Source of the DNA: a virus
Lineage: Duplodnaviria; Heunggongvirae; Uroviricota; Caudoviricetes
Strand: one strand, 5' to 3'
Virus record (IMG/VR): IMGVR_UViG_3300021399_000141
DNA length: 64,000 bases
In this document: one piece after another, positions 2,426 through 63,731 of the stretch
How the letters are laid out: every line of letters begins with the position of its first letter
Numbering within the stretch: the first letter of the stretch is position 1
Position numbers and translations under genes: made by a program
The notes under the pieces: generated by a model
Told to the model about the DNA's origin: nothing
The model's input: only the letters and a program-made list of their open reading frames with translations
The model's database searches: none

Positions 2426-3189
2426 ATTCCTAATGGTTCTAATGCAAGTTTAACTGTTTCTTCTCCAAGGATTTCTATTGCTTGTGTAGCGTCTTTTTGT
2501 GTTTTGAATATTGTGAGATTTTCGCCTGTCCCAAAACAATATTCACCTATATGTGGTTTATTTTCAAAATCTCCGCAACACGTTAAGTAAAAAACATGGT
2601 CACCTTTATTTGGTTTCCATCCGTCATTTAAGTATATAGCAACCGTAGCTAGTTTGTTCTTTGCCAGAATGCACTCAAGTTGATGTTCCGTAGTAGCATT
2701 ATTTGCATCTAATAAAAATTGAGATGGGTCTGTACTGGTTACTTTTCCTATCTCTCCATTCACACATATATAGTAGAAATTATTTATGAGAAATAATTTC
2801 TTACAAACATCTTCATAAGTTAGTCGTTTGTCTTTCAAAACAATCTTATTTTGTTTCTTACTCTCATCCCAGTCGATCACTTTTCCATCCGGAATCTCAA
2901 TGGTTAATTCGTTTTCTTTCATATTTGTTTCTGGTATAAAATCCATAATATCATATTCATATTCTTCACTGTAACAATAGCCTTCTATCAGACAAATACA
3001 ACTTTTACCATTTGCCGCATAATCCGAAACATGGTTACCAGATAAAGTATAGGGATAATCATGCGACATTTTTCTTTTCGTATTTCTATGTAATTTAGAA
3101 AAATCGCATTTATTTCCGTTTCTCAATACGAATGTTCCTTTCAATTTACCCGCAAGGACATCTTCGAATAATTGTTTGTTGATTTTCAT
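2422..3189 (-). CDS. hypothetical protein
   Basis: ORF track 255 aa. Confidence 0.5.
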   Translation of the reverse strand: MKINKQLFEDVLAGKLKGTFVLRNGNKCDFSKLHRNTKRKMSHDYPYTLSGNHVSDYAANGKSCICLIEGYCYSEEYEYDIMDFIPETNMKENELTIEIPDGKVIDWDESKKQNKIVLKDKRLTYEDVCKKLFLINNFYYICVNGEIGKVTSTDPSQFLLDANNATTEHQLECILAKNKLATVAIYLNDGWKPNKGDHVFYLTCCGDFENKPHIGEYCFGTGENLTIFKTQKDATQAIEILGEETVKLALEPLGI

Positions 3190-3205
3190 GTTATGTCATA
3201 TTGGA

Positions 3206-3682
3206 TTATTTATCAAAGAAACGACTAGTTTCTTTGTTCATTTGTTTGTATGTTTTAGTCCGACTTTTACGAACATCTTCGTGTGTAGCAAAGATGCCAG
3301 GACCTTTTCGAAAATACATCTTCTTACCATACACAGGTTTCTTTATGCATAGAACACTAGCCTCTATTTCCGTCAGTATAGACAATACTGCGTGTATAGT
3401 AGCTTCATCACGATCTTCATCGTATATGCATATGTTATGGGTGATCTGATTGTCTAGTGAGACTAATGACGTCCACCAGTAACACTCGCCCGGCTCAAGA
3501 TGGTCGCGAAGTATATCGATCACTCGGAACATCATAATAGCTAATTCGTGTTTGGTGCTAGGTATGTATCCGTACACTGTTTTGAAGATATGTTTCATAT
3601 CCTCTACCAGATCCTTGTGTTCGTACCATCCTTTCGCGTAGAGTACTAGATCATTAAAACGCCAATCTTCTAATGGTTTCAT
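3206..3682 (-). CDS. hypothetical protein
   Basis: ORF track 158 aa. Confidence 0.5.
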   Translation of the reverse strand: MKPLEDWRFNDLVLYAKGWYEHKDLVEDMKHIFKTVYGYIPSTKHELAIMMFRVIDILRDHLEPGECYWWTSLVSLDNQITHNICIYDEDRDEATIHAVLSILTEIEASVLCIKKPVYGKKMYFRKGPGIFATHEDVRKSRTKTYKQMNKETSRFFDK

Positions 3683-3827
3683 ATGTTATTCTGTTATATA
3701 ACGTGAATCGATTCTTGGTCCTATCTTGATTGTCTTCACACAGACAGATTATGCTTTGCGCATACAACGGGAATACAAAATATTGCTGATATAAATATCA
3801 GCGCTATGATTGCAGACAGAACAGATA

Positions 3828-4043
3828 TCATATATTATTTGGATTTGAAGGCAAACTGAACCAGATGTCTTGCGGATTAAACTCGCGAGCGTAATCATCA
3901 CCGTCTTCAGTGTCCCAACAATCATACTCTTTATTGTAACATTGGGGACTCCATTGCTTGAGATGTTCGTCCCAGACCATCACGCGTTCGTCTTGTTCGG
4001 GCTCTTTGTCTTCGAGCCTATATAAATCAATGTTTACTTTCAT
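3828..4043 (-). CDS. hypothetical small protein
   Basis: ORF track 71 aa. Confidence 0.35.
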   Translation of the reverse strand: MKVNIDLYRLEDKEPEQDERVMVWDEHLKQWSPQCYNKEYDCWDTEDGDDYAREFNPQDIWFSLPSNPNNI

Positions 4044-4344
4044 GTCTTTGTTTTCTAAATTTAGGAAAGAATTCTTTAGCTACTGTGCTTATCCAGTGTT
4101 CGGGATCGAAGCATAATTGAGGGTCAATCAGTCCTTTTTCATTAAAAAACCAGAACAGATCGAGCATCATCTCGGTAGATGGGTGCGAGTCTGCGTACTC
4201 TGCACCAGCCATCCATATAACCCGAGGCGTTCCAGAATGATGAGTAATATACTCTTTGGATGCAATCTTTAACTCTTCTTTTCTTTCGTTAGTCATCATC
4301 CTCTGCAAATTCATCGTAATCGTTTTGATCAAAGGTCCAACCAA
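4027..4344 (-). CDS. hypothetical protein
   Basis: ORF track 105 aa. Confidence 0.4.
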   Translation of the reverse strand: MVGPLIKTITMNLQRMMTNERKEELKIASKEYITHHSGTPRVIWMAGAEYADSHPSTEMMLDLFWFFNEKGLIDPQLCFDPEHWISTVAKEFFPKFRKQRHESKH

Positions 4345-4780
4345 TCACACGCCCGTTCAGAATGCGGAATTGGAGATAATCACCGTATCCAGCATCATCA
4401 ATACTGAAACAATCCGGAACGTATCCTGTGTAACCTGCCAGGAGTTCGCCGTCCTGCTGGTATATTTCGTAACGACCTCTATCTGTCAACTTGTAGTTGT
4501 TGAAATCAAAGTTGATTCCTTCCGGCCAGTTGAGCACTTTGCCTGTACTCAAATCTATGCACAGTTTAAGAGTCTTGGTACCCTCTTTAGGATCCGAGCG
4601 GTAATATGCTGGTTGAATATCTACCAGCTGTGGATAGTCTTTTTCGAAATCGTCGATGTTGGTATACTCTTTACCATTGAACTTGAACGGTTCCTCTTCC
4701 CACCATTCGGCAACGTCACCTAGTAACGCCTTAAGGAACCATCCCGTGGCATCTACCTTCTTTCTTATGTTAAGTTCCAT
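4289..4780 (-). CDS. hypothetical protein
   Basis: ORF track 4289..4828, start at MELNIRKK. Confidence 0.45.
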   Translation of the reverse strand: MELNIRKKVDATGWFLKALLGDVAEWWEEEPFKFNGKEYTNIDDFEKDYPQLVDIQPAYYRSDPKEGTKTLKLCIDLSTGKVLNWPEGINFDFNNYKLTDRGRYEIYQQDGELLAGYTGYVPDCFSIDDAGYGDYLQFRILNGRVIGWTFDQNDYDEFAEDDD

Positions 4781-14554: not shown

Positions 14555-15073
14555 TTAGAATGGTTCTTCCCATCCCATTGCGAATGATCTGAACATGAGA
14601 TTCAACTGTTCATCGTCCTGACGACATGTTAGTCTGATAACATCCCCTATTGTCTTTTCGTGTTTGACACTGACTGACGTCTTCAAATCCTTGAATACAA
14701 CCAGATATAGTGAGGTGTTCTCGGTGACGGAGGTCTTGTGCTCTTTGTAAGCCTTTTTGAATATATCACGTATATACTCAAATCTGCTCGACTTATGTTT
14801 AGCGGTAAATGAATAAACTCGAGCACCTGATACACCATATGCATTACCGCTGGGTTGACCGTATCTGTCTTCTCGTCTACCCCAGTCCTGTATCTTGGCA
14901 TGATACTTCAACTCCTTGAATACATCGCTGACAGGTTTGAGGATATTCATTATATCTTCATATTTAGCCAAGCCTTTGATGGCTTTGTCCTCCATGCTAA
15001 TATCTATATCATTATCTAATATGCTTTCGTACAGAGTCTTCATATATGTATATATAATAACAAAGTCTTGCAA
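14555..15073 (-). CDS. hypothetical protein
   Basis: ORF track 172 aa. Confidence 0.5.
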   Translation of the reverse strand: MQDFVIIYTYMKTLYESILDNDIDISMEDKAIKGLAKYEDIMNILKPVSDVFKELKYHAKIQDWGRREDRYGQPSGNAYGVSGARVYSFTAKHKSSRFEYIRDIFKKAYKEHKTSVTENTSLYLVVFKDLKTSVSVKHEKTIGDVIRLTCRQDDEQLNLMFRSFAMGWEEPF

Positions 15074-26761: not shown

Positions 26762-26768
26762 TTCATTG

Positions 26769-26841
26769 CCGTCTTTCGAGGGCTCGAACCTCGCATCTAC
26801 TGGTAGAATCCAGCGCTTCGTCCATGCAAAGCTTAAAGACG
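26769..26841 (-). tRNA. tRNA, anticodon unresolved (6-nt loop ATTCTA)
   Basis: perfect acceptor CGTCTTT/AAAGACG and T-arm CGAGG-TTCGAGC-CCTCG; anticodon stem CTGG/CCAG closes a 6-nt loop. Confidence 0.4.
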
Positions 26842-30504: not shown

Positions 30505-32007
30505 TTACTTACTTTCTACCTTGGCTCCGGCAGAGATCACTTTGGAGTTCTCCTCCATAATCTTTCCGAGGTTTACACCGGTGGCCTGTTCCATTACGTC
30601 CATCGACTGTTTTACCAGTACCGGAACGTTGCCTGAGATACCTGATACCTCGTTACCGTTCGTACCATAGACGTGAACATCCTTGATAGACTTGAGTGGT
30701 TCAGCAACTGATGCAGCGACCTCAGGAAGTTTATCAACAACCATCTGTGCGAGAGCGGCGTGTCCGTACTCTTTGTACGCTTCGGCTTTCTTGTACATCG
30801 CTTTGGCTTCAGCCTCTCCTTTGGCTAGGATAGCAGCGGCTTCTGCCTCACCGACCGCCTTGATACCTGCTGCCTCTTGTTGACGTGCATAGAGATCTGC
30901 TTCTGCCTTGGCTTTAACAGCGAGTGCTTTCTGCTCTGCTTCGTAACGCTCGGCTTCTGCCTGACGTTTGCGTTGCTCCAATTCAGCAGCGGCATTGACC
31001 TCTTTCTGGTACTTCTCCGCATCGGCTTGTTTGTTGACTTGTGCAGCCAATGTCTTCTCCTGGATAGCAATCTCCTGCTCCTTCAAAAGCTGTTCTTGTT
31101 TGGCCTTCTCAACCTTTGCCTCGACTTCAAGTTTGTTGATTTCCTTCTGGCGCTCGTTAATACGAATCGTCTTGGCGGCCTGAGCCTCAACAGTCTTGAT
31201 ATTGATCTCACGAGCCTGTTCTTGCTCCTGGATCTTGTAAGCGGCGTCTGCCATAGCCTTTTGAGTATCTGCTTGGCGCTTCAGTTCCGCTTGCTTGACA
31301 GCTAGCTCCGTGTTGCGTTGTGCAATCTCCGTCTCGGATGCTACTCGAGCATCGTTAGCCTCTTTCTTTGCCTTTGCCTCAGCGATAGCGACATCACGCT
31401 CTGCGTTAGCTTTGTTGATAGAGGCGTTCTTCTTGATCATATAGGTGTTGTCTGCACCTAGGTCTTGAATAAGCCCTTTCTCGTCGGTGATGTTCTGGAT
31501 GTTGCAGGTAAGAATGTGGAGGCCCAACTGTTGCATATCCTTCTCAGCCTTGTTGCGGATCTGATCGGAGAATCCATCTCGGTCTAGGTTCAACTGTTTG
31601 AGCTCCTGTGTACCAACAATCTCACGCATGTTACCTTCTAGGGACTCTTGAATGTTTCGTGCAATGTCTGATGGATTGAAATTCAAGAAGTTCTTTGCTG
31701 CTGTTGCAATGAGTTCTTGATCGACACAAATCTTTGCCACTGCATCGACATTCACGTTGATGAAGTCCTTCGTAGGAATAGAAGAGGCCTTGATATCCAC
31801 AGAGAACTGTCCTAGATACAAACCATCCACCTTTTGCAAGCCTGGAATACGAAGACCACCAGTACCTTTAAGGAACTTGGGTGTTTTCAGCGGCCAACCG
31901 GAAATTACCAATGCCATGTTAGGACTCGCCTTTACATACGAAAGACACAGAATCAGAATGAGGAGTGCCAAAACCGCGCCTCCGATAATAAGTGAAATGT
32001 TTACCAT
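30505..32007 (-). CDS. SPFH/band-7 (flotillin or YqiK-like) membrane protein
   Basis: N-terminal TM helix, SPFH-like region, then a roughly 250-aa Ala/Glu/Lys/Gln-rich coiled coil; antisense plus-strand ORFs here are low-complexity artefacts. Confidence 0.55.
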   Translation of the reverse strand: MVNISLIIGGAVLALLILILCLSYVKASPNMALVISGWPLKTPKFLKGTGGLRIPGLQKVDGLYLGQFSVDIKASSIPTKDFINVNVDAVAKICVDQELIATAAKNFLNFNPSDIARNIQESLEGNMREIVGTQELKQLNLDRDGFSDQIRNKAEKDMQQLGLHILTCNIQNITDEKGLIQDLGADNTYMIKKNASINKANAERDVAIAEAKAKKEANDARVASETEIAQRNTELAVKQAELKRQADTQKAMADAAYKIQEQEQAREINIKTVEAQAAKTIRINERQKEINKLEVEAKVEKAKQEQLLKEQEIAIQEKTLAAQVNKQADAEKYQKEVNAAAELEQRKRQAEAERYEAEQKALAVKAKAEADLYARQQEAAGIKAVGEAEAAAILAKGEAEAKAMYKKAEAYKEYGHAALAQMVVDKLPEVAASVAEPLKSIKDVHVYGTNGNEVSGISGNVPVLVKQSMDVMEQATGVNLGKIMEENSKVISAGAKVESK

Positions 32008-43133: not shown

Positions 43134-43946
43134 CTACAAAATTCTTTTACCAATCGTTATTTTCTTGGCAACAACTTTAGAATCCCAGCGTCTTTCATTA
43201 CATACTCCTTCAAGCTCAACTTCGCGAATCACCATGTCTCCTCCAAATGTCCCGTCATAATAACTAAATACGTCTGCAAGATTTAAACAAGCATGAAAGC
43301 CACAATGACATAATATAGGTTCACCATCGAACTCGTATGTTTTACCTTCTTCATATTGAAAGCCTCGGCATGTCATATCAGGATAAAACCCTTTATACGC
43401 TTTACATTTACCGTCTCTAATAACCTGGTTTGCGTAGGTTTTGCCCCTAAAGATTATAGAAGCCAAATTGCCACAGCCTTCGAATGCACACCATCCTATG
43501 CGGATGACACTGTCAGGAATCTCAATAGACGTCAAACCTATGCAATCTTTAAAAGCATCACTTTCAATGCTTGTAACCCTATTTGGAATAGTTAAAGATT
43601 TCAAACCGATGCATCCTCGAAAAGCACTACCACTAATGCAAGTGATACTATTCGGAATTTTTATCGTGGTCAAACCGGTGCAATGACCGAAAACTCCGGT
43701 CCCAATGCTTGTGACACTGTCTGGGATCGTTATAGAGGTCAAACCTGTACAATAGCTGAAAACCCAGCATCCAATGCTTGTGATACTGTCTGGGATCGTT
43801 ATAGAGGTCAAACCACTACAGCCACAGAAAGCGCGGTTTCCAAAAGCTGTATATCCTTTGAGCATATCAGCAGTGATAACAGATACTTCATCAAAACCAA
43901 GTATTTCAACTTGTTCTCTTGTTAAAACTTTTTCTTCCATATTCAT
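43134..43946 (-). CDS. BspA-type leucine-rich-repeat protein
   Basis: tandem about 23-aa repeats ITIPDSVTSIG..F..C.GLTS. Confidence 0.55.
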   Translation of the reverse strand: MNMEEKVLTREQVEILGFDEVSVITADMLKGYTAFGNRAFCGCSGLTSITIPDSITSIGCWVFSYCTGLTSITIPDSVTSIGTGVFGHCTGLTTIKIPNSITCISGSAFRGCIGLKSLTIPNRVTSIESDAFKDCIGLTSIEIPDSVIRIGWCAFEGCGNLASIIFRGKTYANQVIRDGKCKAYKGFYPDMTCRGFQYEEGKTYEFDGEPILCHCGFHACLNLADVFSYYDGTFGGDMVIREVELEGVCNERRWDSKVVAKKITIGKRIL

Positions 43947-54260: not shown

Positions 54261-55133
54261 TTACTGTATGGTTTCTTTGTCAACTTTCTTGTTGGATAAG
54301 TTGTTCAGAGCCGATCCCATCTTATCCGGAAACGATGTGCTTTTATCACTGGTATCCGAACCTCCTTTGGATGTCTGAGGCATGTATCCTCGTTCAGGTG
54401 CGTTGTGTGGTGGCTTCTTGTTTTTCTTCAGCGCCATAATATTGTCGATGATGAACTGACGTGCTTCGTCATCTGTTTTGATCTTCGGATTGGCATCCTT
54501 CAAACGTCTCCAGGTTTCTGAGTTTTCGTTGTCAAGGATATATCTTTCGATCTCTTTTTTGCTCATGTCGTATATGTTATGACCTGGTGGAACATGCTGC
54601 ACTGGTAGGTTTTCACCCTTTCGTGCTTGGACCGCGGCTATGGTGCCTTGTACTGCCTTGAGCATCTGAGTAATGGTTATGTTTGCTGAATAGTCGAAAC
54701 ACAACATCTTACCTTTTGGATTGAACACAGCTATCTCGGACCATCTGTGGTGTCCGTCAATGATGTACTTACCATTGAAGGTTACCAGTGGCATGCGTGC
54801 AATGATAATCAAATCACTATATTCAACAACCACATTATCAGGATTATGGAACGGGGCTCCGATGGTCTTATCTATATCGATCTCGTTTTGTGAAGGATAC
54901 AGGCGGGATGCTTCTATCAGTTTTGGAGTGTACTTGAATTTGAGATCACCAAATTCTGTGCCGAATCCTTCGTCTAATAATGTCTTGGCTTTAGGATCTT
55001 CAAGAATCTTGTTCAGTGTGTCTACGTAGTCCACATAATTCTTACCCTTCAACCAGTCCCGGAGCTGCTCCAGACGCTCCTTGTTAGAAGAGGTTTCTTG
55101 AGATTCGACTATGTAGTTGTACAGACTTTTCAT
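54261..55133 (-). CDS. ParB-like nuclease-domain protein with MKSL-type N-terminus
   Basis: DGHHRWSE motif; start set at MKSLYNYIVES (ORF track 54261..55169). Confidence 0.4.
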   Translation of the reverse strand: MKSLYNYIVESQETSSNKERLEQLRDWLKGKNYVDYVDTLNKILEDPKAKTLLDEGFGTEFGDLKFKYTPKLIEASRLYPSQNEIDIDKTIGAPFHNPDNVVVEYSDLIIIARMPLVTFNGKYIIDGHHRWSEIAVFNPKGKMLCFDYSANITITQMLKAVQGTIAAVQARKGENLPVQHVPPGHNIYDMSKKEIERYILDNENSETWRRLKDANPKIKTDDEARQFIIDNIMALKKNKKPPHNAPERGYMPQTSKGGSDTSDKSTSFPDKMGSALNNLSNKKVDKETIQ

Positions 55134-55758: not shown

Positions 55759-57465
55759 TTACATCATACCTCCACCATCATCCGGGTTCTCCCCTCCAGC
55801 AAGGTTGAGTTCTTCAATCTCTTCTTGTTTCAACTTGGTGTTGAGTTTCAAATCAGCATCAGATAGTTTCAAGTACTTCTGTACCAAGAACTTAGATGAC
55901 CAGAACTTGATTTCATTACCATTTTGATCCATATCCACCATACCATCTTTCATGGTCTGGATGAAGTCAACACGTTTCTGCATCAGCTCCATCTCCATCA
56001 TCTCTTCGAAGAGGTTGTAAGAGTGGTACTGCAACGAGATAGCTTCGAGCACCTCTCTGTTGTCTTGCAGTTCAGGAATAGACAGCGCCAACTGCATCTG
56101 TAGTGGTTTGATCATGATTTGACTGAAGCGATTACGCAAACGAGTAACGAATCGTCCGAAATCAATCTCGGTACGCGCTACTGATGTGGCGTCGGATCCA
56201 AACCAAGTCTCTCCGTTGTCCTGTTCAAAACGACTCAAAGGAATTTTTGATATCTTGTATAACTGGTTCTTGAAGTAACGTAACTGGTCGTCATCGTTAA
56301 GGTTAGGTCCGTCCCCACCCAGTGTCTCGATATTTGGTGTACCTGAGTCGTTCTCTGGAAACCAGTACTCTTTGTTGAACGGGAGGTTCACTTGACCATT
56401 GATCTCCAATTCACCTGTATCAGGCATGAATTTGATGTCTTCCTTGTACTTGTTCATCGCGGACGATACTGTCTGCATACCGAGTGTGCGGTTCATACCC
56501 TTAACAGGTATGGTAAACTTCATCTTATAGGATGAGTTGGTAATGGTCCAGATCAACTGGGCTTGCTCGACGATACGATAGATATTGAACGGTCGGATCA
56601 GACGCTCCAGATACGACAAACGAGTCAGGCAATTGGTCTCTTGGTACGCTATATAGACGACTTGTGAATCGAGAAGAGTACGCTCTTTGCCATTCATACC
56701 CTTATATTGGATCCAGTACCATTTGTTGTTGTCGAACTTCTTGGTTAGTGTGGCTGGGTCCAAAGGAACGAGTCCGATGATGTTGGTTGGTTTCTCTAGA
56801 TTGTCGTAAACGATCTCCCAAGCCAGGATACCTTCCACGAGGAATCGTTTGAAATCATCCCAAGCATTGTATTTCCAGTTCAACATCTTATAGAAGCGGC
56901 GGAAGTTGGTATTGATAGTATTGGTGATTTTCTCCTGGACTTCTTTGGTGAACATATTGATCTCCTGAGCCTCGACAAAAGGTTCTGCAAAGTATACCAG
57001 TTCATTATCGTACACGATAGCTTCGTTAGTCATGGTATCCAGGATATCTTCCAGTTCCGGCTGCATAGCGAGCTTGCGGAGCGCGTCACGTTTCTGTGGA
57101 AAATCCTTACTGAAGAAATCCTTATCAGCGTTCTGTTTGACCTTCCAGTTGTTAGCCATCGATGTGAACAAGTCCTGGTTGATCAACTGTTGCTCTTTTG
57201 GAATGAAGTTCTTATCCGCTGGTATAGCGCGCATGTTGGCAATGACCTGTTCATCGTACGTCATACCCAGACGAGACATGTTTGAGAAAAACCGAGCGAT
57301 GACGCCTTTCTTCTTCTCTTGCTGGGTCTGCGCATATCGAGGCCTGAAGTTGGTCGTCTCCTTGAATCCGGGTATATTAGAAGGGTTCTGTAATTGACCC
57401 TCTCCGATTAGGATACTACCTCCTTCGTCTATTAGTTTTGAGGATATTGATGATTCTTGTTCCAT
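55759..57465 (-). CDS. putative portal protein
   Basis: 568 aa, no Walker motif; size and position next to lysis and structural genes; weak evidence. Confidence 0.35.
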   Translation of the reverse strand: MEQESSISSKLIDEGGSILIGEGQLQNPSNIPGFKETTNFRPRYAQTQQEKKKGVIARFFSNMSRLGMTYDEQVIANMRAIPADKNFIPKEQQLINQDLFTSMANNWKVKQNADKDFFSKDFPQKRDALRKLAMQPELEDILDTMTNEAIVYDNELVYFAEPFVEAQEINMFTKEVQEKITNTINTNFRRFYKMLNWKYNAWDDFKRFLVEGILAWEIVYDNLEKPTNIIGLVPLDPATLTKKFDNNKWYWIQYKGMNGKERTLLDSQVVYIAYQETNCLTRLSYLERLIRPFNIYRIVEQAQLIWTITNSSYKMKFTIPVKGMNRTLGMQTVSSAMNKYKEDIKFMPDTGELEINGQVNLPFNKEYWFPENDSGTPNIETLGGDGPNLNDDDQLRYFKNQLYKISKIPLSRFEQDNGETWFGSDATSVARTEIDFGRFVTRLRNRFSQIMIKPLQMQLALSIPELQDNREVLEAISLQYHSYNLFEEMMEMELMQKRVDFIQTMKDGMVDMDQNGNEIKFWSSKFLVQKYLKLSDADLKLNTKLKQEEIEELNLAGGENPDDGGGMM

Positions 57466-57540: not shown

Positions 57541-58323
57541 TTATGCGTCTTTCAGGCGATCTTTGAACACCAGCCAGGCTTTTTCATCACTATGTACGTT
57601 GGTTTTGATACCTGTTTTCGAATCGTATATAGGTCCGGGATTCCATCCGATTATACCAGGACACAACTTGCGGGTAGCATCGTAATGTCGTATGACTTTG
57701 TCCCAAGGAATACCGTACTTCTTCATGATGATCTTGGATAGTAGTACGGCATTGTCTATCGATGCTCGTGTGAAGTACCATCCTTCATGGTTAGGAACTT
57801 TCGGTGTGGTACCTTTCTTTAGATTAGAACAGATCTCAATGCTGATCGCGTTCTGGTTGGTTACACCGTACTTACCCTTACCATCTCCTACAGCCCAACA
57901 ATAGTAGTTCTTAGGATCAGGATTGACTTGTAGCATCGAGTCATCATCTACCACGAAATCTGCGCTCGCGTTTCTATTAAGGAATACATTACGATTGCGT
58001 TCATCAGCATCACCTGCTGAAGAGGATCCTGCTGTGAAGTGTATGACAAGGTACTCAATAGGTCGACCGTCCTTATGGGTGATGTGCTTGTCAATAGGAT
58101 TATATATAACCCTCGGATCTATCTGACCAGATGGAAGGGTGGTGCACGTCATCATCGACCATGTCTTATCACCTACTATTCCATCAGACACCAGACCATG
58201 TGTTGCTTGCCAGTTCTTGACAAGGCGTTCTGTAGTGGACCCGAAATCACCATCTGGACGACACCCTAGGATGACCTGTAGTCTCTTGACATCCTCACCT
58301 TTGGATCCTTTTTTGAGAAGCAT
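57541..58323 (-). CDS. endolysin: peptidoglycan-binding domain plus N-acetylmuramoyl-L-alanine amidase (PGRP type)
   Basis: N-terminal PG_binding_1-like GSKGEDVKRLQ...DGDFG...DGIVG; amidase_2 residues HFTAG, ISIE, HYDATRKLCPG. Confidence 0.65.
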   Translation of the reverse strand: MLLKKGSKGEDVKRLQVILGCRPDGDFGSTTERLVKNWQATHGLVSDGIVGDKTWSMMTCTTLPSGQIDPRVIYNPIDKHITHKDGRPIEYLVIHFTAGSSSAGDADERNRNVFLNRNASADFVVDDDSMLQVNPDPKNYYCWAVGDGKGKYGVTNQNAISIEICSNLKKGTTPKVPNHEGWYFTRASIDNAVLLSKIIMKKYGIPWDKVIRHYDATRKLCPGIIGWNPGPIYDSKTGIKTNVHSDEKAWLVFKDRLKDA

Positions 58324-58326
58324 AAG

Positions 58327-58734
58327 TTACTTTCTTTTGACTCCGTCTTTGTCCATGTAATTACCCTTCTTGATCCAGTCAAGATTGAGCTTGATGAGCT
58401 CATGCATACGATCAGCGATCTTCTCCGCATAACGACGTTCGAAGCTGCTCACCTTCAACTCTTCACAAGCAATTTCATCGAGCACTTGGAGACAATACAC
58501 TGGTTCGAATGTGTCGCCTGCATGGTTATATACATCGAAGCGTCTGTTTATCTCTTCTCCGCCACGTTCCGCAATCTTATTTTGCGATGTACCTGAACTG
58601 ACGCCACCACTTACATATCCCGACCAGTTGTCCCAATACTGTGTGAATAGGTCCAAGTCAGATAGTTTGCTCCACATGATACGTTGGGCTTCGGTCAGTA
58701 GGGATTCTTGAATAGATTCAATTAGGCTTTTCAT
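58327..58734 (-). CDS. MKSL-N-terminus family protein
   Basis: starts MKSLIESIQESLLTEA. Confidence 0.45.
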   Translation of the reverse strand: MKSLIESIQESLLTEAQRIMWSKLSDLDLFTQYWDNWSGYVSGGVSSGTSQNKIAERGGEEINRRFDVYNHAGDTFEPVYCLQVLDEIACEELKVSSFERRYAEKIADRMHELIKLNLDWIKKGNYMDKDGVKRK

Positions 58735-58735
58735 A

Positions 58736-58993
58736 TTACTTCAGTTGCCCAACAAACGTTTTCAGTGCGTCTGTTGCTTTTTTGTATTTGTCATCCATAT
58801 CGTCTAGATATTCAGGGTCCTCGCGATAAACTAGTCCTGCTTTGAGACCCTCTACTATAGCACCCAGTACATTGTACATCTCGCGTTGGTCTGGTACTCC
58901 TTTAACCCAGGACTCCAAATAAGCGGCGATCTGCTTGGTATCGGTGCGACTTTCGTTGAGACTCTGATTCAACATCTCTTTTATGTCTTGCAT
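58736..58993 (-). CDS. hypothetical protein
   Basis: ORF track 85 aa. Confidence 0.45.
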   Translation of the reverse strand: MQDIKEMLNQSLNESRTDTKQIAAYLESWVKGVPDQREMYNVLGAIVEGLKAGLVYREDPEYLDDMDDKYKKATDALKTFVGQLK

Positions 58994-59023: not shown

Positions 59024-60259
59024 TTATTCGGCTGGGGCTTCAGGTTCAGCTGTATCATTACAGTAATCATAGATAGTTTCACCTTCTGATGGATAATCAT
59101 TATCGACTAAATAATCCTCTGCAGATTCTCCTGCGAACGAATCATAAGCATTTGAACTATAGTATCCATTATAACCTTGTTCATTATATGTTTCATTTGG
59201 ATTTAGACTTACATATGTAGGATCTTCTGCTTCGTGTTCGATTGTGACTGTTACTTCTGGGTTATAACTATCATTGCAGTAATCATAGATAGTTGCACCA
59301 GCCTCTGGATATTTGTCATCAACTAAGTAATCATCAGCAGTTTCACCAGCCTCGGAATTATACATATCACTTTCATAGTATCCATTATAACCTTGTTCAC
59401 TATATGTTTCATTTGGATTTAATGATACTGTTTCAGAAGGTCCATCTTCATGTTCAATCGTAACATCCGCACCGGGTTCTTTCAACCACATATTTAAAGT
59501 CACATCAGTACCATCTGCTAATGTAATTGTAAACACTTCTTCTTTGTTATAATCATATGTTTGACCACCAACAACAGTTATTGTTTGCAAACTGCCAGGA
59601 TAAGCTGGTTCACCTGTCACATCATTGCCAACGAAGAAAGCACTATTTGCAATGCCTGTAACCCCACTACCAATAATCACAGATGTCAAACTGACGCAAT
59701 CAAAGAAAGCACCATATCCAATGCTTGTAACACTATTCGGGATCGTTATAGATGTCAAACCGACACAATTAAAGAAAGCGACTGCTCCGATTCGTGTAAC
59801 TGTTTTTGGTAAAACAATATTTTTTACATTGCATGTTAACCCTATTTTTGGATATATTATAAAAAATGGACCATCAGCGATCATTGTTTCTGCGTCATTA
59901 TCACCCAATATAGTCACGTCACCATCAAATGTCATGCACCACATCTGTTTTTCTTCATCAAACTTGTTAGAAACCACAGCCGGACCATTATATGTACCTC
60001 CCATGCTAATTATCCCTTCTATAATTCCACCAAAATCATAGATTTCACCATCAGTTGTGGTGTACCAAATCTCATTGGATGCCGGCCCCACAGGTTCAGG
60101 ACCTGGATTATATATTTCTTGATAAGCACCGAGTTGATGGATATGATCTTTAATGATCTGATCATCTAAGGATAATGTGCCTGCAACGAGTTGCTGTGCC
60201 AAACTCGAGTCTGTTAGGTACTTGTTATTTAGTACGTCATCAATAGACATGTTAGCCAT
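59024..60259 (-). CDS. BspA-type LRR protein with C-terminal repeated about 60-aa modules (tail-fiber or adhesin candidate)
   Basis: LRR units TSITIPNSVTSIG; two C-terminal modules ending DYLVD..YP..G.TIYDYCND; N-terminal 45 aa identical to next gene. Confidence 0.55.
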   Translation of the reverse strand: MANMSIDDVLNNKYLTDSSLAQQLVAGTLSLDDQIIKDHIHQLGAYQEIYNPGPEPVGPASNEIWYTTTDGEIYDFGGIIEGIISMGGTYNGPAVVSNKFDEEKQMWCMTFDGDVTILGDNDAETMIADGPFFIIYPKIGLTCNVKNIVLPKTVTRIGAVAFFNCVGLTSITIPNSVTSIGYGAFFDCVSLTSVIIGSGVTGIANSAFFVGNDVTGEPAYPGSLQTITVVGGQTYDYNKEEVFTITLADGTDVTLNMWLKEPGADVTIEHEDGPSETVSLNPNETYSEQGYNGYYESDMYNSEAGETADDYLVDDKYPEAGATIYDYCNDSYNPEVTVTIEHEAEDPTYVSLNPNETYNEQGYNGYYSSNAYDSFAGESAEDYLVDNDYPSEGETIYDYCNDTAEPEAPAE

Positions 60260-60296
60260 ATTCGTGTATTATGTATTTTTCTTAATTTGATTGAAA

Positions 60297-62381
60297 TTAT
60301 TCTGCTGGTTCTTCTGGCTCGGGCTCTTCAGGATCTGGTTCAGCTATATCATTACAGTAGTCATAAATGGTATCGCCTTCTGATGGATGTGTATCATTAA
60401 CTAAGTAATCATCAGCAGATTCATCGGTCTCGGAATTATAAGTATTTTGACTGTAGTATCCTGTATAACCATTGTCAGCATATGTTATCTCTGAATTTAG
60501 ACTTACATATGTAGGATCTTCTGCTTCGTGTTCGATTGTGACTGTTACTTCTGGGTTATAACTATTATTACAGTAATCATAGATAGTGTCGCCTGATTGA
60601 GGAGAATTATTATCAACTAAGAAATCATCAGCAGATTCGCCTGCATCCGAATTATAAGTATCTTGACTATAGTATCTTTCATATCCTTGTTCACCATATG
60701 TTTGGTTAGCATCTAATGATACTGTTTCCGGGTCTGCATCTTTATGTTCAATCGTAATCTTTACGTAAGTTGGATCTGGATCTAAAGCCGTATCATCAGC
60801 TAACACATACATATAATCAGGATCTAATGATTCATCCACATCAACAAGTGCAATATGATCAGGATCTACAAATTCATAATCTGTTGCTTTTACGATTGAT
60901 ATAGAGTGCCCAGATTCAGCATGATGGGCAACAGGCATTGTTACCCCCTGGAACTCTTGAGTTATAACAGTAAATCCGTAGGTAGATAATCCAGGAACGT
61001 CTTTTGTACCATTGACTAAAGTTGAAATAAATTCTCCAGCCGTCATAGGATGTTCATCTATTTTAACAGATCCGACGACATATAGAAAATGTGGTAAATG
61101 TTCTTTTCCGATTAGATCCACAAACCAGGATGCTTCTGCTAAAAGCGACGGAAATATCATGTTTGAATTATAAATCTCAACAACTGTACCATCAAAACAT
61201 TGATACTCACCTATACCAGTTCCGTCGAGCCAACCTTTGTCGATTCTAGCGCATTCTTTTTGTGTGCCCTCGTAATATACTTCATTAACACCGGATAGGG
61301 CACCCATTCCTATAGACGAAACACCGTTTGGTAAAGTTAATGTTAATGATGGTTTACGCTCTATAACTGCTTCAAATGTGTTATCAAACCAGCTTTGTTC
61401 AAGTGTTGTCAAATCATCGCTAAATGTAACTATTCCTTCGCCCTGTTTGTCATTAAATGTATGTTCGACATAATTTACTCCCTCTTTTATGGTTAACTGT
61501 TCAGGGGCAGTATATCGTATCTGGTTGTTATTTAACAGCGCTTCGATCCTATCTGCATATTCAGACCAAAATTCCTTATACGCATCAACCGAATCAGCAG
61601 GTACCATTATTAGACAGTCACTACCACTGAAGACGTCATTTCCTATGACTGGGGGATTTGGTGCTTTGCAGATAATAGGGTCTAAACCTTCACAGCCACC
61701 GAAAACATTGTCTCCGATGAATGTAACCCTGTCACCAATTATTGCGGATTTCAAACCGGTACAACCACCGAAAGCACGATCTCCAATACTTGTGACGCTA
61801 TCAGGAATCGTTATTGAGGTCAAACCGGTGCAACTCCAGAAAGCATGATTTCCAATACTGGTGACGCTGTTAGGAATCGTGATAGAGTTTAGACTACTGC
61901 AACCTCCGAAAGTCAAATCGCCAATTCGTGTAACCGTTTTTGGCAAAACAATAGTTTCTACATTGCAAGTTATGCTCATGTCTTTGTTTGTTCCAAAAAA
62001 TGGACCGTCAGCAGTAAATGCAACTAGATCAATATCACCCAATACTGTCACATCTTCATCGAATGTCAGGCACCACATTTGTTTTTCCTCATCAAACTCA
62101 TTAGAAACTACAGCAGGACCATTGTATGCGCCTCCCATACCAGTCAGCATTTCTATAATTCCAGCCAAATCATACATTTCACCATCTGATGTGGTGTACC
62201 AGATTTCTTTGCCAGAATCATCACCCGATCCATAAATTTCGATATATGCGCCGAGTTGATGGATGTGATCTTTAATGATCTGATCATCTAGGGATAGTGT
62301 GCCTGCAACGAGTTGCTGTGCTAAACTCGAGTCTGTTAGGTACTTGTTATTTAGTACGTCATCAATAGACATTTTTGCCAT
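60297..62381 (-). CDS. BspA-type LRR protein, larger paralog
   Basis: same N-terminus MAKMSIDDVLNNKYLTDSSLAQQLVAGTLSLDDQIIKDHIHQLGAY; LRR units; same C-terminal modules. Confidence 0.55.
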   Translation of the reverse strand: MAKMSIDDVLNNKYLTDSSLAQQLVAGTLSLDDQIIKDHIHQLGAYIEIYGSGDDSGKEIWYTTSDGEMYDLAGIIEMLTGMGGAYNGPAVVSNEFDEEKQMWCLTFDEDVTVLGDIDLVAFTADGPFFGTNKDMSITCNVETIVLPKTVTRIGDLTFGGCSSLNSITIPNSVTSIGNHAFWSCTGLTSITIPDSVTSIGDRAFGGCTGLKSAIIGDRVTFIGDNVFGGCEGLDPIICKAPNPPVIGNDVFSGSDCLIMVPADSVDAYKEFWSEYADRIEALLNNNQIRYTAPEQLTIKEGVNYVEHTFNDKQGEGIVTFSDDLTTLEQSWFDNTFEAVIERKPSLTLTLPNGVSSIGMGALSGVNEVYYEGTQKECARIDKGWLDGTGIGEYQCFDGTVVEIYNSNMIFPSLLAEASWFVDLIGKEHLPHFLYVVGSVKIDEHPMTAGEFISTLVNGTKDVPGLSTYGFTVITQEFQGVTMPVAHHAESGHSISIVKATDYEFVDPDHIALVDVDESLDPDYMYVLADDTALDPDPTYVKITIEHKDADPETVSLDANQTYGEQGYERYYSQDTYNSDAGESADDFLVDNNSPQSGDTIYDYCNNSYNPEVTVTIEHEAEDPTYVSLNSEITYADNGYTGYYSQNTYNSETDESADDYLVNDTHPSEGDTIYDYCNDIAEPDPEEPEPEEPAE

Positions 62382-62400
62382 ATTCGTATTGTATATTTTT

Positions 62401-62853
62401 TTAATTTTTCAAATCTTTTGCAAAATCACCCTTGGTATAATCCAAGTCGGTGATAACCCCTTCCCCATTGCGCACTTCTATATATCCTTGAGGAAAAGCA
62501 TTGAGCACTGCTCGTAGGTATCGATATGGAGTTAGTCCGTCCATCACATGTCCCGTCACAGGGTTCAGTACGAACAACTTATCATCGTTTGCAGGGATAA
62601 CACGATTTAGATAGTTTTTGCGGACTTTACCAGTGATTGGGATAGTGAACAACCATTTATTACGATACTCAATATGACCATCCTGGTATATGATGAAAGT
62701 GTCGTCGTCGTGTCTAAAGTCTAAGCCGATATCGCTAATCTTTGTTTTTAGACTTTGGGATAATTTTAGAGGCTTGCCGAACAGCTCCTTCATCTTTTTG
62801 TCGGCTGCTTCGTTAATGGTGCTTTCATATAAGGTTTCGATTAGACTTTTCAT
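62401..62853 (-). CDS. MKSL-N-terminus family protein
   Basis: starts MKSLIETLYESTINEA. Confidence 0.45.
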   Translation of the reverse strand: MKSLIETLYESTINEAADKKMKELFGKPLKLSQSLKTKISDIGLDFRHDDDTFIIYQDGHIEYRNKWLFTIPITGKVRKNYLNRVIPANDDKLFVLNPVTGHVMDGLTPYRYLRAVLNAFPQGYIEVRNGEGVITDLDYTKGDFAKDLKN

Positions 62854-62865
62854 ATTTATAGTTTT

Positions 62866-63258
62866 TTATTTATGCAAACCAAGATATAGCGTCCAGACAT
62901 CATCAGGGACATCCACTTCTACGTCTACTACATAACAGCCATCAAGCTCTTTTACTACAGCCTGCATGTCTTTTAGGTATGTCTCCCATTTACCAGAGCC
63001 GTTGAGACCACCATACAGTTTGATTATGTAGTGATCCGAATCCACCAAGAACACATCTACGACAGCCAGGTTAGAGGTCTCCTTGGCGTTTTTGATACTG
63101 GACAACGAATCCAATTTTTTATTGAGTTCGTCTGTCTTCGTCCACTTCTCACCGTACTTTTCGTACTTGTCTTGGAGTGTGTCCTTATCCTCGTTCACTA
63201 TCGAACGAAGGCACGACAGTATCCGATCCTCGATGATCATTTGTGTCAGACTTTTCAT
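62866..63258 (-). CDS. MKSL-N-terminus family protein
   Basis: starts MKSLTQMIIEDRIL. Confidence 0.45.
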   Translation of the reverse strand: MKSLTQMIIEDRILSCLRSIVNEDKDTLQDKYEKYGEKWTKTDELNKKLDSLSSIKNAKETSNLAVVDVFLVDSDHYIIKLYGGLNGSGKWETYLKDMQAVVKELDGCYVVDVEVDVPDDVWTLYLGLHK

Positions 63259-63272
63259 GCTTGTGCTATTTT

Positions 63273-63731
63273 TTATCTGTATTTACCCCTCATTACGCGC
63301 CATTCTCCTTCAAGGGTCCTCCAATAGTGTTTCAATTGGCTGACAGAAACAGAAACCATGCAATCCTTAGGTAGGTTTTCGAACACTCCGTTGAGATAAT
63401 CCGTCATGTCATCAGCGCGATTTTTCTCTATCTCTTTAGCGGCCTTGGTATTTTGCAGTTCGATGTCGAGTATATAAGCATCAGCTTGTTTTCCTGTATA
63501 ACCACTTTCACCCCACTTAGGTTTTACATCAGGTAGCTCAACAGTTAGTTTTTTGAGATCTTTGACAGTTATATTTGGGTCAAGACCGAAAATGTTCAGT
63601 CTCTTGCTGTAACTCTGGGTCTCAGGATCTCTTTCGTATGTAAATTGCAAACCTCCTTTGTCCACGAGATTTTGACTAGCAAATCTCTCACATATAATGG
63701 ATTCCTTTAAAAATTCAGATAAACTTTTCAT
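63273..63731 (-). CDS. MKSL-N-terminus family protein
   Basis: starts MKSLSEFLKESIICE. Confidence 0.45.
   Translation of the reverse strand: MKSLSEFLKESIICERFASQNLVDKGGLQFTYERDPETQSYSKRLNIFGLDPNITVKDLKKLTVELPDVKPKWGESGYTGKQADAYILDIELQNTKAAKEIEKNRADDMTDYLNGVFENLPKDCMVSVSVSQLKHYWRTLEGEWRVMRGKYR

Follow-up and report, generated by a model that had tools for sequence, protein, structure and literature searches.

Modular receptor-binding proteins (RBPs) and tail fibres of phages combine a conserved N-terminal anchor with exchangeable distal domains, as is known from the mosaics of the T-even gp37/38 type and from the multi-tailspike systems of the Ackermannviridae and of K1-5 and SP6. In jumbo phages—PTm1, PAU, and the hairy Myoviridae—the "hair" and fibres of head and tail have been proposed as attachment aids (PMC7824862, PMC13282480), and T4, for its part, possesses a capsid targeting sequence (CTS), MKTYQEFIAE (PMC8442874). 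Proteins with leucine-rich repeats (LRRs) are common in the genomes of gut phages without having been assigned a function, and the literature searched on the function of phage BspA or LRR proteins offers only a speculative role in host recognition for a single vibriophage LRR protein. The present analysis concerns the IMG/VR virus record IMGVR_UViG_3300021399_000141, of which we refer to the whole stretch of 64,000 nucleotides (nt) as the window, and, within that window, two adjacent genes, here designated A and B, that encode BspA-type LRR proteins. The two genes are paralogous and modular in architecture, their conserved N-terminal head is found on varied cargo in relatives, their alleles in near-identical strains are mosaic, and their divergence is focused on the repeated modules near the C-terminus (the C modules). 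The window derives from a huge phage; a homologue of gene B sits on a 388-kb contig of a relative.

Architecture and age of the tandem paralogues

The initial annotation had described A and B as tandem BspA-LRR paralogues, and both open reading frames (ORFs) were indeed found on the minus strand with matches to Pfam LRR_5 (PF13306) of 64.6 bits for A (1e-17) and 109.7 bits for B (1.2e-31), both of which exceed the gathering cut-off of 27.7 bits. The modules of B follow one another as head, linker, W domain, LRR_5, mid domain, two C modules, and an acidic Pro/Glu tail; those of A as head, linker, W domain, a short LRR_5, an A-specific linker of 55 amino acids (aa), two C modules, and tail, the mid domain being missing. 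BLASTP gave 69% between aa 1-208 of A and aa 1-204 of B and 65% across the C-terminal 150 aa, with a segment of about 330 aa of B being absent from A. We set the borders of the modules from an alignment of few full-length homologues together with an AlphaFold2 (AF2) model of B (predicted local distance difference test, pLDDT, 80.7), which model shows the order of the domains.

59024-60259, minus strand: gene A, ORF of 411 aa
60297-62381, minus strand: gene B, ORF of 694 aa
62232-62381, minus strand: head module of B, aa 1-50, the conserved N-terminus and putative docking segment
60110-60259, minus strand: head module of A, aa 1-50, with 45/46 residues identical to B
62244-62387, minus strand: 5' DNA repeat, B copy, comprising 6 nt upstream of the ATG and the first 138 coding nt
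60122-60265, minus strand: 5' DNA repeat, A copy
61977-62210, minus strand: W domain of B, aa 58-135, motif WYTT..YNGP..VSN
61533-61967, minus strand: LRR_5 (BspA-type) solenoid of B, aa 139-283, from Pfam
60771-61532, minus strand: mid domain of B, aa 284-537
60548-60764, minus strand: C module 1 of B, 72 aa
60332-60548, minus strand: C module 2 of B
59254-59470, minus strand: C module 1 of A
59038-59254, minus strand: C module 2 of A
59201-59271, minus strand: 71-nt tract, A copy, at the junction of modules 1 and 2
60495-60565, minus strand: 71-nt tract, B copy

That the B-A tandem is not an artefact of assembly follows from two further contigs that reproduce the junction: L018, an independent contig with 15.7x coverage, has an identical B 3' end, spacer, and gene A, and L002 is collinear, with 98.6% identity, from the upstream genes through B into the beginning of A (its first 46 nt). 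A and B are tandem same-strand paralogues.

The near-identity of the two 5' ends that had been reported initially was confirmed, 130 of the first 138 coding nt being identical (94%; 8 differences), with exact blocks of 50, 25, and 24 nt (e.g., 60201-60250 = 62323-62372); the accompanying statement that the first 45 aa are identical was slightly overstated, since A has N and B has K at residue 3, and 45 of the first 46 residues coincide. In a codon-based comparison of A with B, however, the overall synonymous divergence (dS) was about 0.5-0.6; the duplication is therefore old, and the very recent duplication that had been offered as one explanation does not agree with that value. Over aa 1-46 of the head we obtained a nonsynonymous divergence (dN) of 0.009 and a dS of 0.28—i.e., seven synonymous changes and one replacement—and over the rest of the genes a dS of 0.5-0.95. 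Because of the contrast between those values of dN and dS in the head, we read the 5' identity as a protein-level constraint, that is, as mainly the result of purifying selection on the conserved 50-aa head, which occurs on unrelated cargo as well, and not of fresh DNA identity.

The internal identity is of a different kind. An exact match of 71 nt (59201-59271 = 60495-60565) bears out the stretch of about 70 bp noticed at first, whose coordinates in gene A had been given some 5 nt off. None of 100,000 shuffles of the mismatch positions reached a run of such length (p<1e-5), the third codon positions considered alone gave a run of 26 (p = 0.0012), and the dS was 0 over the 15.3 synonymous sites of the tract against 0.4-0.95 in the flanks. 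This tract looks like the footprint of a short gene conversion. Two contigs of close strains have the same tract, L007 without and L002 with one change, so that it is older than their split.

With respect to the individual modules, the LRR part is a conventional LRR_5 domain and constitutes the sole portion with a match to anything known: over aa 138-293, that of B matches solved LRR_5 "cell surface" proteins, including TpLRR and the pneumococcal PcpA, with the PDB structures 4fs7, 4gt6, and 6mlx among the matches, and the matches in BFVD are all unannotated LRR proteins. The W domain, conserved in A, P0002, P0003, and L003 and predicted to be alpha/beta (pLDDT 70-84), may cap the LRR solenoid at its N-terminal end. 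The mid domain occurs in the homologous proteins P0002-P0006, P0013, P0021, P0129, and P0131; this domain had no match in Pfam, nor did the mid domain plus C modules in a tblastn search of INPHARED.

Each gene ends in two C modules, as had been annotated, with a period of 216 nt, that is, of 72 aa and not of about 60, and with the consensus ...TY.EQGY.GYYSQ.TY.S...LVDN..P..G.TIYDYCN. The earlier suggestion that these modules might be lectin-like is not supported by the models, in which the predicted fold is a tandem beta-grasp (ubiquitin-like), a fold common to the InlB B-repeat. Neither PF09479 nor any other Pfam family matched the 25 C modules or the construct of mid domain plus C modules at E<=1, and a C-module profile gave nothing significant against the PDB sequences. 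An exhaustive phmmer search found C modules in only 21 proteins among 1.84 billion cluster representatives, and none was found in the collection of bacterial and archaeal genomes scanned, so that the C module is not a prophage or bacterial module in that collection.

The head, for its part, has 22 of 53 positions invariant among 10 proteins with different cargo. In the AF2 monomer model the head appears with low confidence as four short helices, after which comes a Gly/Ser/Pro linker. Searches with the head gave no match in Pfam and PHROGs, none among the deposited phages of INPHARED by tblastn, and, as a profile, nothing significant against the PDB sequences. To judge from these searches, the head, the mid domain, and the C modules are apparently undescribed families that are restricted to this phage clade.

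Variation of the slot among relatives and strains

Upon searching with the head and the C modules, we found the head, at 64-100% identity, in proteins with quite different cargo. In L004/L009 the head precedes a different LRR body of a 428-aa protein without C modules; in P0122 and P0125 it is joined directly to two or three C modules; in P0129 and P0131/L014 it is followed by the mid domain and one C module; and in P0121, P0123, P0124, P0145, and L011 it is followed only by acidic Pro/Glu or Gly-Ser repeats. Conversely, P0002 and P0004 have the W-LRR-mid-C body with a different N-terminus. The head stays constant and the cargo may come or go, within a census of head-bearing proteins that is incomplete in that the searches of proteins with the head profile returned few matches.

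Every syntenic contig (L004, L007, L008, L014, and L015-L017) has one or more head-bearing genes in the same slot, between a gene of about 150 aa and one of 81-85 aa and upstream of the amidase and the portal. The order is that of genes whose products start with MKSL, then the slot, the 81-85-aa gene, and the amidase; the portal comes after the amidase in L004, L014, L015, and L016, the contigs L007, L008, and L017 ending at the amidase. In the window, the 85-aa boundary gene is followed by a 135-aa MKSL gene, then the amidase, and then the portal.

62401-62853, minus strand: upstream boundary gene of the slot, 150 aa, start MKSLIETLYE, kept in all syntenic relatives
58736-58993, minus strand: downstream boundary gene of the slot, 85 aa, kept in relatives
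57541-58323: amidase_2/PG_binding endolysin, from Pfam
55759-57465: T4-type portal, from Pfam

The content of the slot differs as follows.

Window: B and A
L004: head plus the different LRR body, an LplA-like gene, and head-W-LRR-mid with one C module
L014 (197-kb contig): head-mid with one C module
L015-L017 (three independent samples): 93-aa protein with the head and a 40-aa acidic tail

The related genomes are not uniform at this locus, the distant ones having different cargo behind the same head. The gene between the two head-bearing genes of L004 (9369-9992) is lipoate-protein-ligase-like (LplA-B_cat), which indicates that the slot also takes unrelated insertions. In L012, an ORF of 49 aa consisting of the head only (4432-4581; seen also as P0144) adjoins a 393-aa protein (3048-4229; P0133) with one C module, another N-terminus, and another C-terminal domain, which pair may be a decayed or split cassette.

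Four contigs with consecutive European Nucleotide Archive (ENA) analysis accessions represent strains nearly identical to the window, and these enabled a comparison of alleles. The flanks of L007 are identical to the window in 1046/1046 positions upstream and at 99.5% downstream, and its slot contains a single A-like gene, 96.4% identical to A. The differences from A are mostly B-type alleles and are clustered, with a run of 6 (p=1e-4) and with 13 of the 17 B-type sites lying within the first 45 informative sites (p=2.5e-5). The flanks of L008 are 99.5% and 98.9% identical to those of the window, and the slot is a single gene with the head and three C modules, in which the head is B-type at 7/8 diagnostic sites and the linker A-type; of the modules, the first is partly novel, the second includes a segment of B module 1, and the third is a hybrid of A modules 1 and 2, with its 5' half from the former and its 3' half from the latter. 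A B-less arrangement in these two strains is possible. The copy of gene A in L002 begins with B-type alleles, and the pattern of single-nucleotide polymorphisms in the 5' repeat is mosaic in L002, L007, and L008 alike. The copy of gene B in L002 has 2 differences from B in the first 1600 nt, whereas the last 460 nt have 31 substitutions and a 15-nt indel; the differences, which include one cluster of A-type alleles at nt 2007-2022, concentrate in the C modules, C module 2 among them, and in the acidic tail.

Gene conversion and unequal exchange between copies of the head and C-module repeats are evident from these data, the divergence being centred on the C modules. The proposal that the shared segments serve as substrates of recombination, or are its footprints, thus found support in the mosaic A/B alleles of near-identical strains and in the allele with a head and three C modules, whose modules are chimeric between A and B. 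The repeats are direct, the heads being spaced at 2122 nt and the C modules at 216 and 1294 nt. Recombinational shuffling of cassettes is therefore well supported by the mosaics together with the C-module divergence, and we hold the genetic part of our explanation—conversion and shuffling—to be very probably correct.

A static alternative would be that no shuffling is under way, A and B being old duplicates whose ends are held by purifying selection and the strain variants being artefacts of low-coverage assembly. The overall dS of about 0.55 is compatible with such a history, and the protein-level constraint explains the identity of the heads; furthermore, the 71-nt tract is common to all the close strains, and L007 and L008 are SPAdes contigs of only 3.5-4x. 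Contigs also break exactly in the head or C-module repeats, at the end of L002, the end of L013, and both ends of L018, which breaks fit either an ambiguity of the assembly graph or a heterogeneity of strains and indicate that assemblers struggle here. On the other hand, the sequence of the novel L008 module is absent from the window, so that it must belong to a real allele; the alternation of A- and B-type sites in L007 takes place over stretches too short for k-mer chimeras; and the divergence between B and its L002 counterpart, which in the C modules exceeds that of the remaining gene more than 50-fold, occurs in a single continuous contig. These fine-scale mosaics and the novel module of L008 cannot be assembly chimeras. 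Moreover, relatives assembled independently—the 197-kb and 43-kb contigs as well as the three samples with the 93-aa version—differ in cargo, and a dS of 0 across the 71-nt tract goes beyond what protein-level selection alone would produce. We consequently regard this alternative as improbable.

Repeated modules and a variation concentrated C-terminally would likewise be expected of a programmed diversification, either by a diversity-generating retroelement (DGR) acting on the C modules or by an invertase switch as in the Mu G and P1 C segments. The mismatches between repeats, however, involve all the bases and are not adenine-specific; A and B are co-directional, with the only inverted repeats being of <=22 nt with 77-87% complementarity; and neither a reverse transcriptase nor an invertase was present among the ORFs scanned, in a scan that was not exhaustive. 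Since the mismatches are of all bases and the inverted repeats short and imperfect, both mechanisms were rejected for the window, and we consider a diversification of this kind extremely improbable.

Proposed docking to the virion versus a possible packaging in the capsid

In the explanation that we propose, A and B are old tandem paralogues, and the slot that they occupy is a hypervariable cassette site at a fixed position in the genomes of a clade of huge phages from gut metagenomes. The genes of the slot consist of a head of about 50 aa, a Gly/Ser/Pro linker, and then an interchangeable cargo—a BspA-type LRR solenoid, the clade-specific mid domain, zero to three predicted beta-grasp C modules, or an acidic Pro/Glu tail alone. 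The head would be a docking segment by which the protein is held on an invariable partner, in all likelihood a component of the virion, with the cargo exposed in the manner of an adhesin. The head DNA, being conserved, and the repeated C modules form direct repeats, between which homologous recombination and gene conversion would swap patches, fuse or delete modules, and bring about the gain or loss of whole genes; and such events would alter the binding specificity from strain to strain. We judge the entire chain, from the docking of the head to the change in specificity, to be about evenly balanced between right and wrong.

Virion display is suggested by a cargo that is built like an extracellular adhesin and yet lacks an export signal; by a head that in the AF2 model is poorly ordered as a monomer and then continues into a flexible linker; and by the location of the genes in a same-strand string with the endolysin, adjoining the portal. 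As to the export signal, no hydrophobic stretch is seen in the N-terminus MAKMSIDDVLNNKYLTDSSL, and the grand average of hydropathy (GRAVY) of the head is 0.00, as read from the sequence with no dedicated predictor being run; and no C-terminal sorting or anchoring domain, whether the C-terminal domain of the type IX secretion system (T9SS), Big_2, or a cell-wall anchor, was found by Pfam in A or B. In addition, the portal-level relatives PTm1 and PAU bear head fibres or mop-like tail fibres (PMC7824862, PMC13282480). From these features we infer a docking to the virion with an adhesin or host-range role, in which A and B would be putative receptor-binding proteins. A bolder version, which we advance only tentatively and consider doubtful, is that the head constitutes a general plug fitting a single docking site of the virion, a natural display system of this clade of huge gut phages, with recombination at the head and C-module repeats switching what the particle sticks to. 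The docking site would then take cargo of any size between an acidic bristle of 40 aa and an adhesin of LRR and beta-grasp modules of 640 aa, and the ligand of the particle—a bacterial surface, mucus, or another—would be switched between otherwise identical strains.

Several observations weigh against this explanation. Among the PHROGs, the matches of A and B were confined to phrog_35892 and phrog_18805, neither of which has a known function, and to the LRR part, and no homology was found there to an annotated family of tail fibres, spikes, or decorations. The neighbours of A and B are small ORFs, the amidase, the portal, and NrdD, and not a tail or baseplate module, which neighbourhood constitutes weak evidence, since huge phages often scatter their structural genes. 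The single-gene slots of L007 and L008 come from contigs of low coverage, in which an assembler could have skipped a gene by way of the head repeat; and, as the 71-nt tract predates the split of the strains, conversion at that tract is not demonstrably ongoing. Finally, the starts of the small flanking genes, which belong to the following set, would fit a locus of internal or ejected proteins equally well.

58327-58734, 62401-62853, 62866-63258, 63273-63731, 54261-55133, and 14555-15043, all minus strand: ORFs of 130-290 aa with CTS-like starts

The products of these small ORFs begin with M-K-[ST]-L-x-[ENQ]-x-[IL]-x-[ED], and those flanking the slot match M-K-S-L-x-E-x-[IL]-x-E; starts such as MKSLIESIQE, MKSLIETLYE, MKSLSEFLKE, and MKSLTQMIIE closely resemble the T4 CTS. 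Four of these ORFs, which are beside the slot, are conserved in the syntenic relatives, the remaining two having been seen in the window only, and none of the six matched Pfam or PHROGs. Going by their N-termini, we consider these products candidate internal head proteins that would be packaged.

The flanking genes thus lead to the second explanation, in which the head would be a targeting or packaging tag, with the proteins either being packaged in the capsid and ejected or acting within the infected cell. Host proteins, such as defence factors, would then be the targets of the LRR and beta-grasp modules, and the slot would be a hypervariable effector locus similar to those of the T4 internal proteins. 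The embedding of the slot among small genes with CTS-like N-termini (cf. PMC8442874) accords with that possibility, as do the vicinity of the portal, the lack of a signal peptide in A and B, and the precedent of the T4 internal proteins, which form a diverse set sharing only a conserved targeting sequence (PMC3012670); the variation by presence or absence and by mosaics, moreover, would fit an arms race equally well. A and B themselves, however, start with MA[NK]MSIDDVL, and the head, MAKMSIDDVLNNKYL..., is unlike the T4 CTS; nor does the head end in a conserved L/I-x-E cleavage motif, because the E varies across heads. The two proteins are strongly acidic, with an isoelectric point (pI) of 4.05, whereas IPI-III of T4 are highly basic (PMC8442874). 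The cargo, in turn, resembles bacterial extracellular adhesins, and the 40-aa acidic tail that is all some slot genes bear behind the head is hard to see as an effector. We consider a packaging tag rather unlikely, though less so than either a static locus or a programmed diversification.

Genomic setting and comparison with known systems

Genes A and B sit in one closely packed string with the endolysin. Elsewhere the window encodes NrdD, ThyX, PNKP, and an ATP-dependent DNA ligase, along with the following features.

43134-43946, minus strand: third LRR_5 gene, with a C-terminal DUF7666 domain (8e-26)
30505-32007, minus strand: SPFH/Band 7 and flotillin-like protein, 500 aa
15971-28035, minus strand: tRNA array, 36 genes, covering most amino acids

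The first of these had also been annotated as a BspA-LRR gene, and the match to LRR_5 is present; since the gene has neither the head nor C modules, it belongs to a separate LRR lineage, outside the cassette family. The 388-kb relative, too, has a Band_7 gene, which there adjoins the LRR homologue. The tRNA array contains four tRNA-Met(cat) and, at 26768-26841, one odd call with a 2-nt anticodon; it accounts for the scarcity of ORFs between 15.9 and 28 kb, for which a recoding of stop codons was ruled out as the cause. A pattern recurs upstream of 57465, 48887, 51926, 43042, and 55133, in which a GC-rich hairpin with a T-run is separated by no more than about 30 nt from an A/T-rich, TATATA..ACATA-like motif directly before the ATG; the similar motifs ATACATAATA and ATATACAATA precede A and B. 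This pattern is possibly a class of phage promoter with very short leaders.

The closest portal was that of the uncultured 462-kb phage LR756500 (41%), followed by those of the Sphingomonas phage PAU, the Tenacibaculum phage PTm1, and the Prevotella Lak phages (33-35%), so that PAU and PTm1 are the closest cultured phages as judged by portal similarity. The locus gave no nucleotide match by megablast to the deposited phages in INPHARED. The parallel with the fibres of PTm1 and PAU is one of portal similarity and of a proposed role in attachment; no counterpart of the head, mid domain, or C modules was found among the genomes of deposited phages.

The locus amounts to a defined and testable system, with a constant N-terminal tag, a fixed slot, a cargo that switches at the level of strains, and a divergence focused on a new repeat of predicted beta-grasp fold. 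If the head does dock on the virion, such an arrangement would explain how uncultured huge phages vary their adhesion or host range, and would also supply a natural scaffold for display.

Among the known systems, the BspA- and internalin-type adhesins (InlB B-repeat, PcpA, TpLRR) resemble A and B in having an LRR_5 solenoid followed by small tandem modules of a predicted beta-grasp fold; A and B, however, begin with the phage-specific head in place of the N-terminus of the adhesins, lack a signal peptide, lipobox, T9SS domain, and cell-wall sorting domain, and have C modules that match neither PF09479 nor any other Pfam family. The internal-protein loci of T4 (PMC8442874, PMC3012670) have in common with the slot a short conserved N-terminus on diverse cargo, a variable locus, a conserved 5' DNA that can be a handle for recombination, and flanking ORFs that carry a CTS-like start; unlike the T4 proteins, A and B are large and very acidic, and their head is of 50 aa, unrelated to the CTS, and without a conserved protease site. 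The likeness to modular RBPs and tail fibres extends to the constant N-terminus with distal modules that vary among paralogues and strains, to the several paralogues per genome with the same anchor, to the recombination mosaics, and to the strain-level alleles. In contrast to those proteins, A and B are outside the tail module, have no similarity in sequence or profile to annotated fibre or spike families, and are putative virion proteins; their cargo, furthermore, is composed of LRR_5 and predicted beta-grasp repeats and not of beta-helix or fibre folds, and shrinks to a 40-aa acidic tail in some relatives. As far as their sequences permit a judgement, A and B are not demonstrable members of any family of fibres, spikes, or decorations, nor of a DGR or shufflon. 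By analogy, the locus would appear to work functionally both like the modular RBPs with their conserved anchor and like the internal-protein loci of T4 with their conserved tag.

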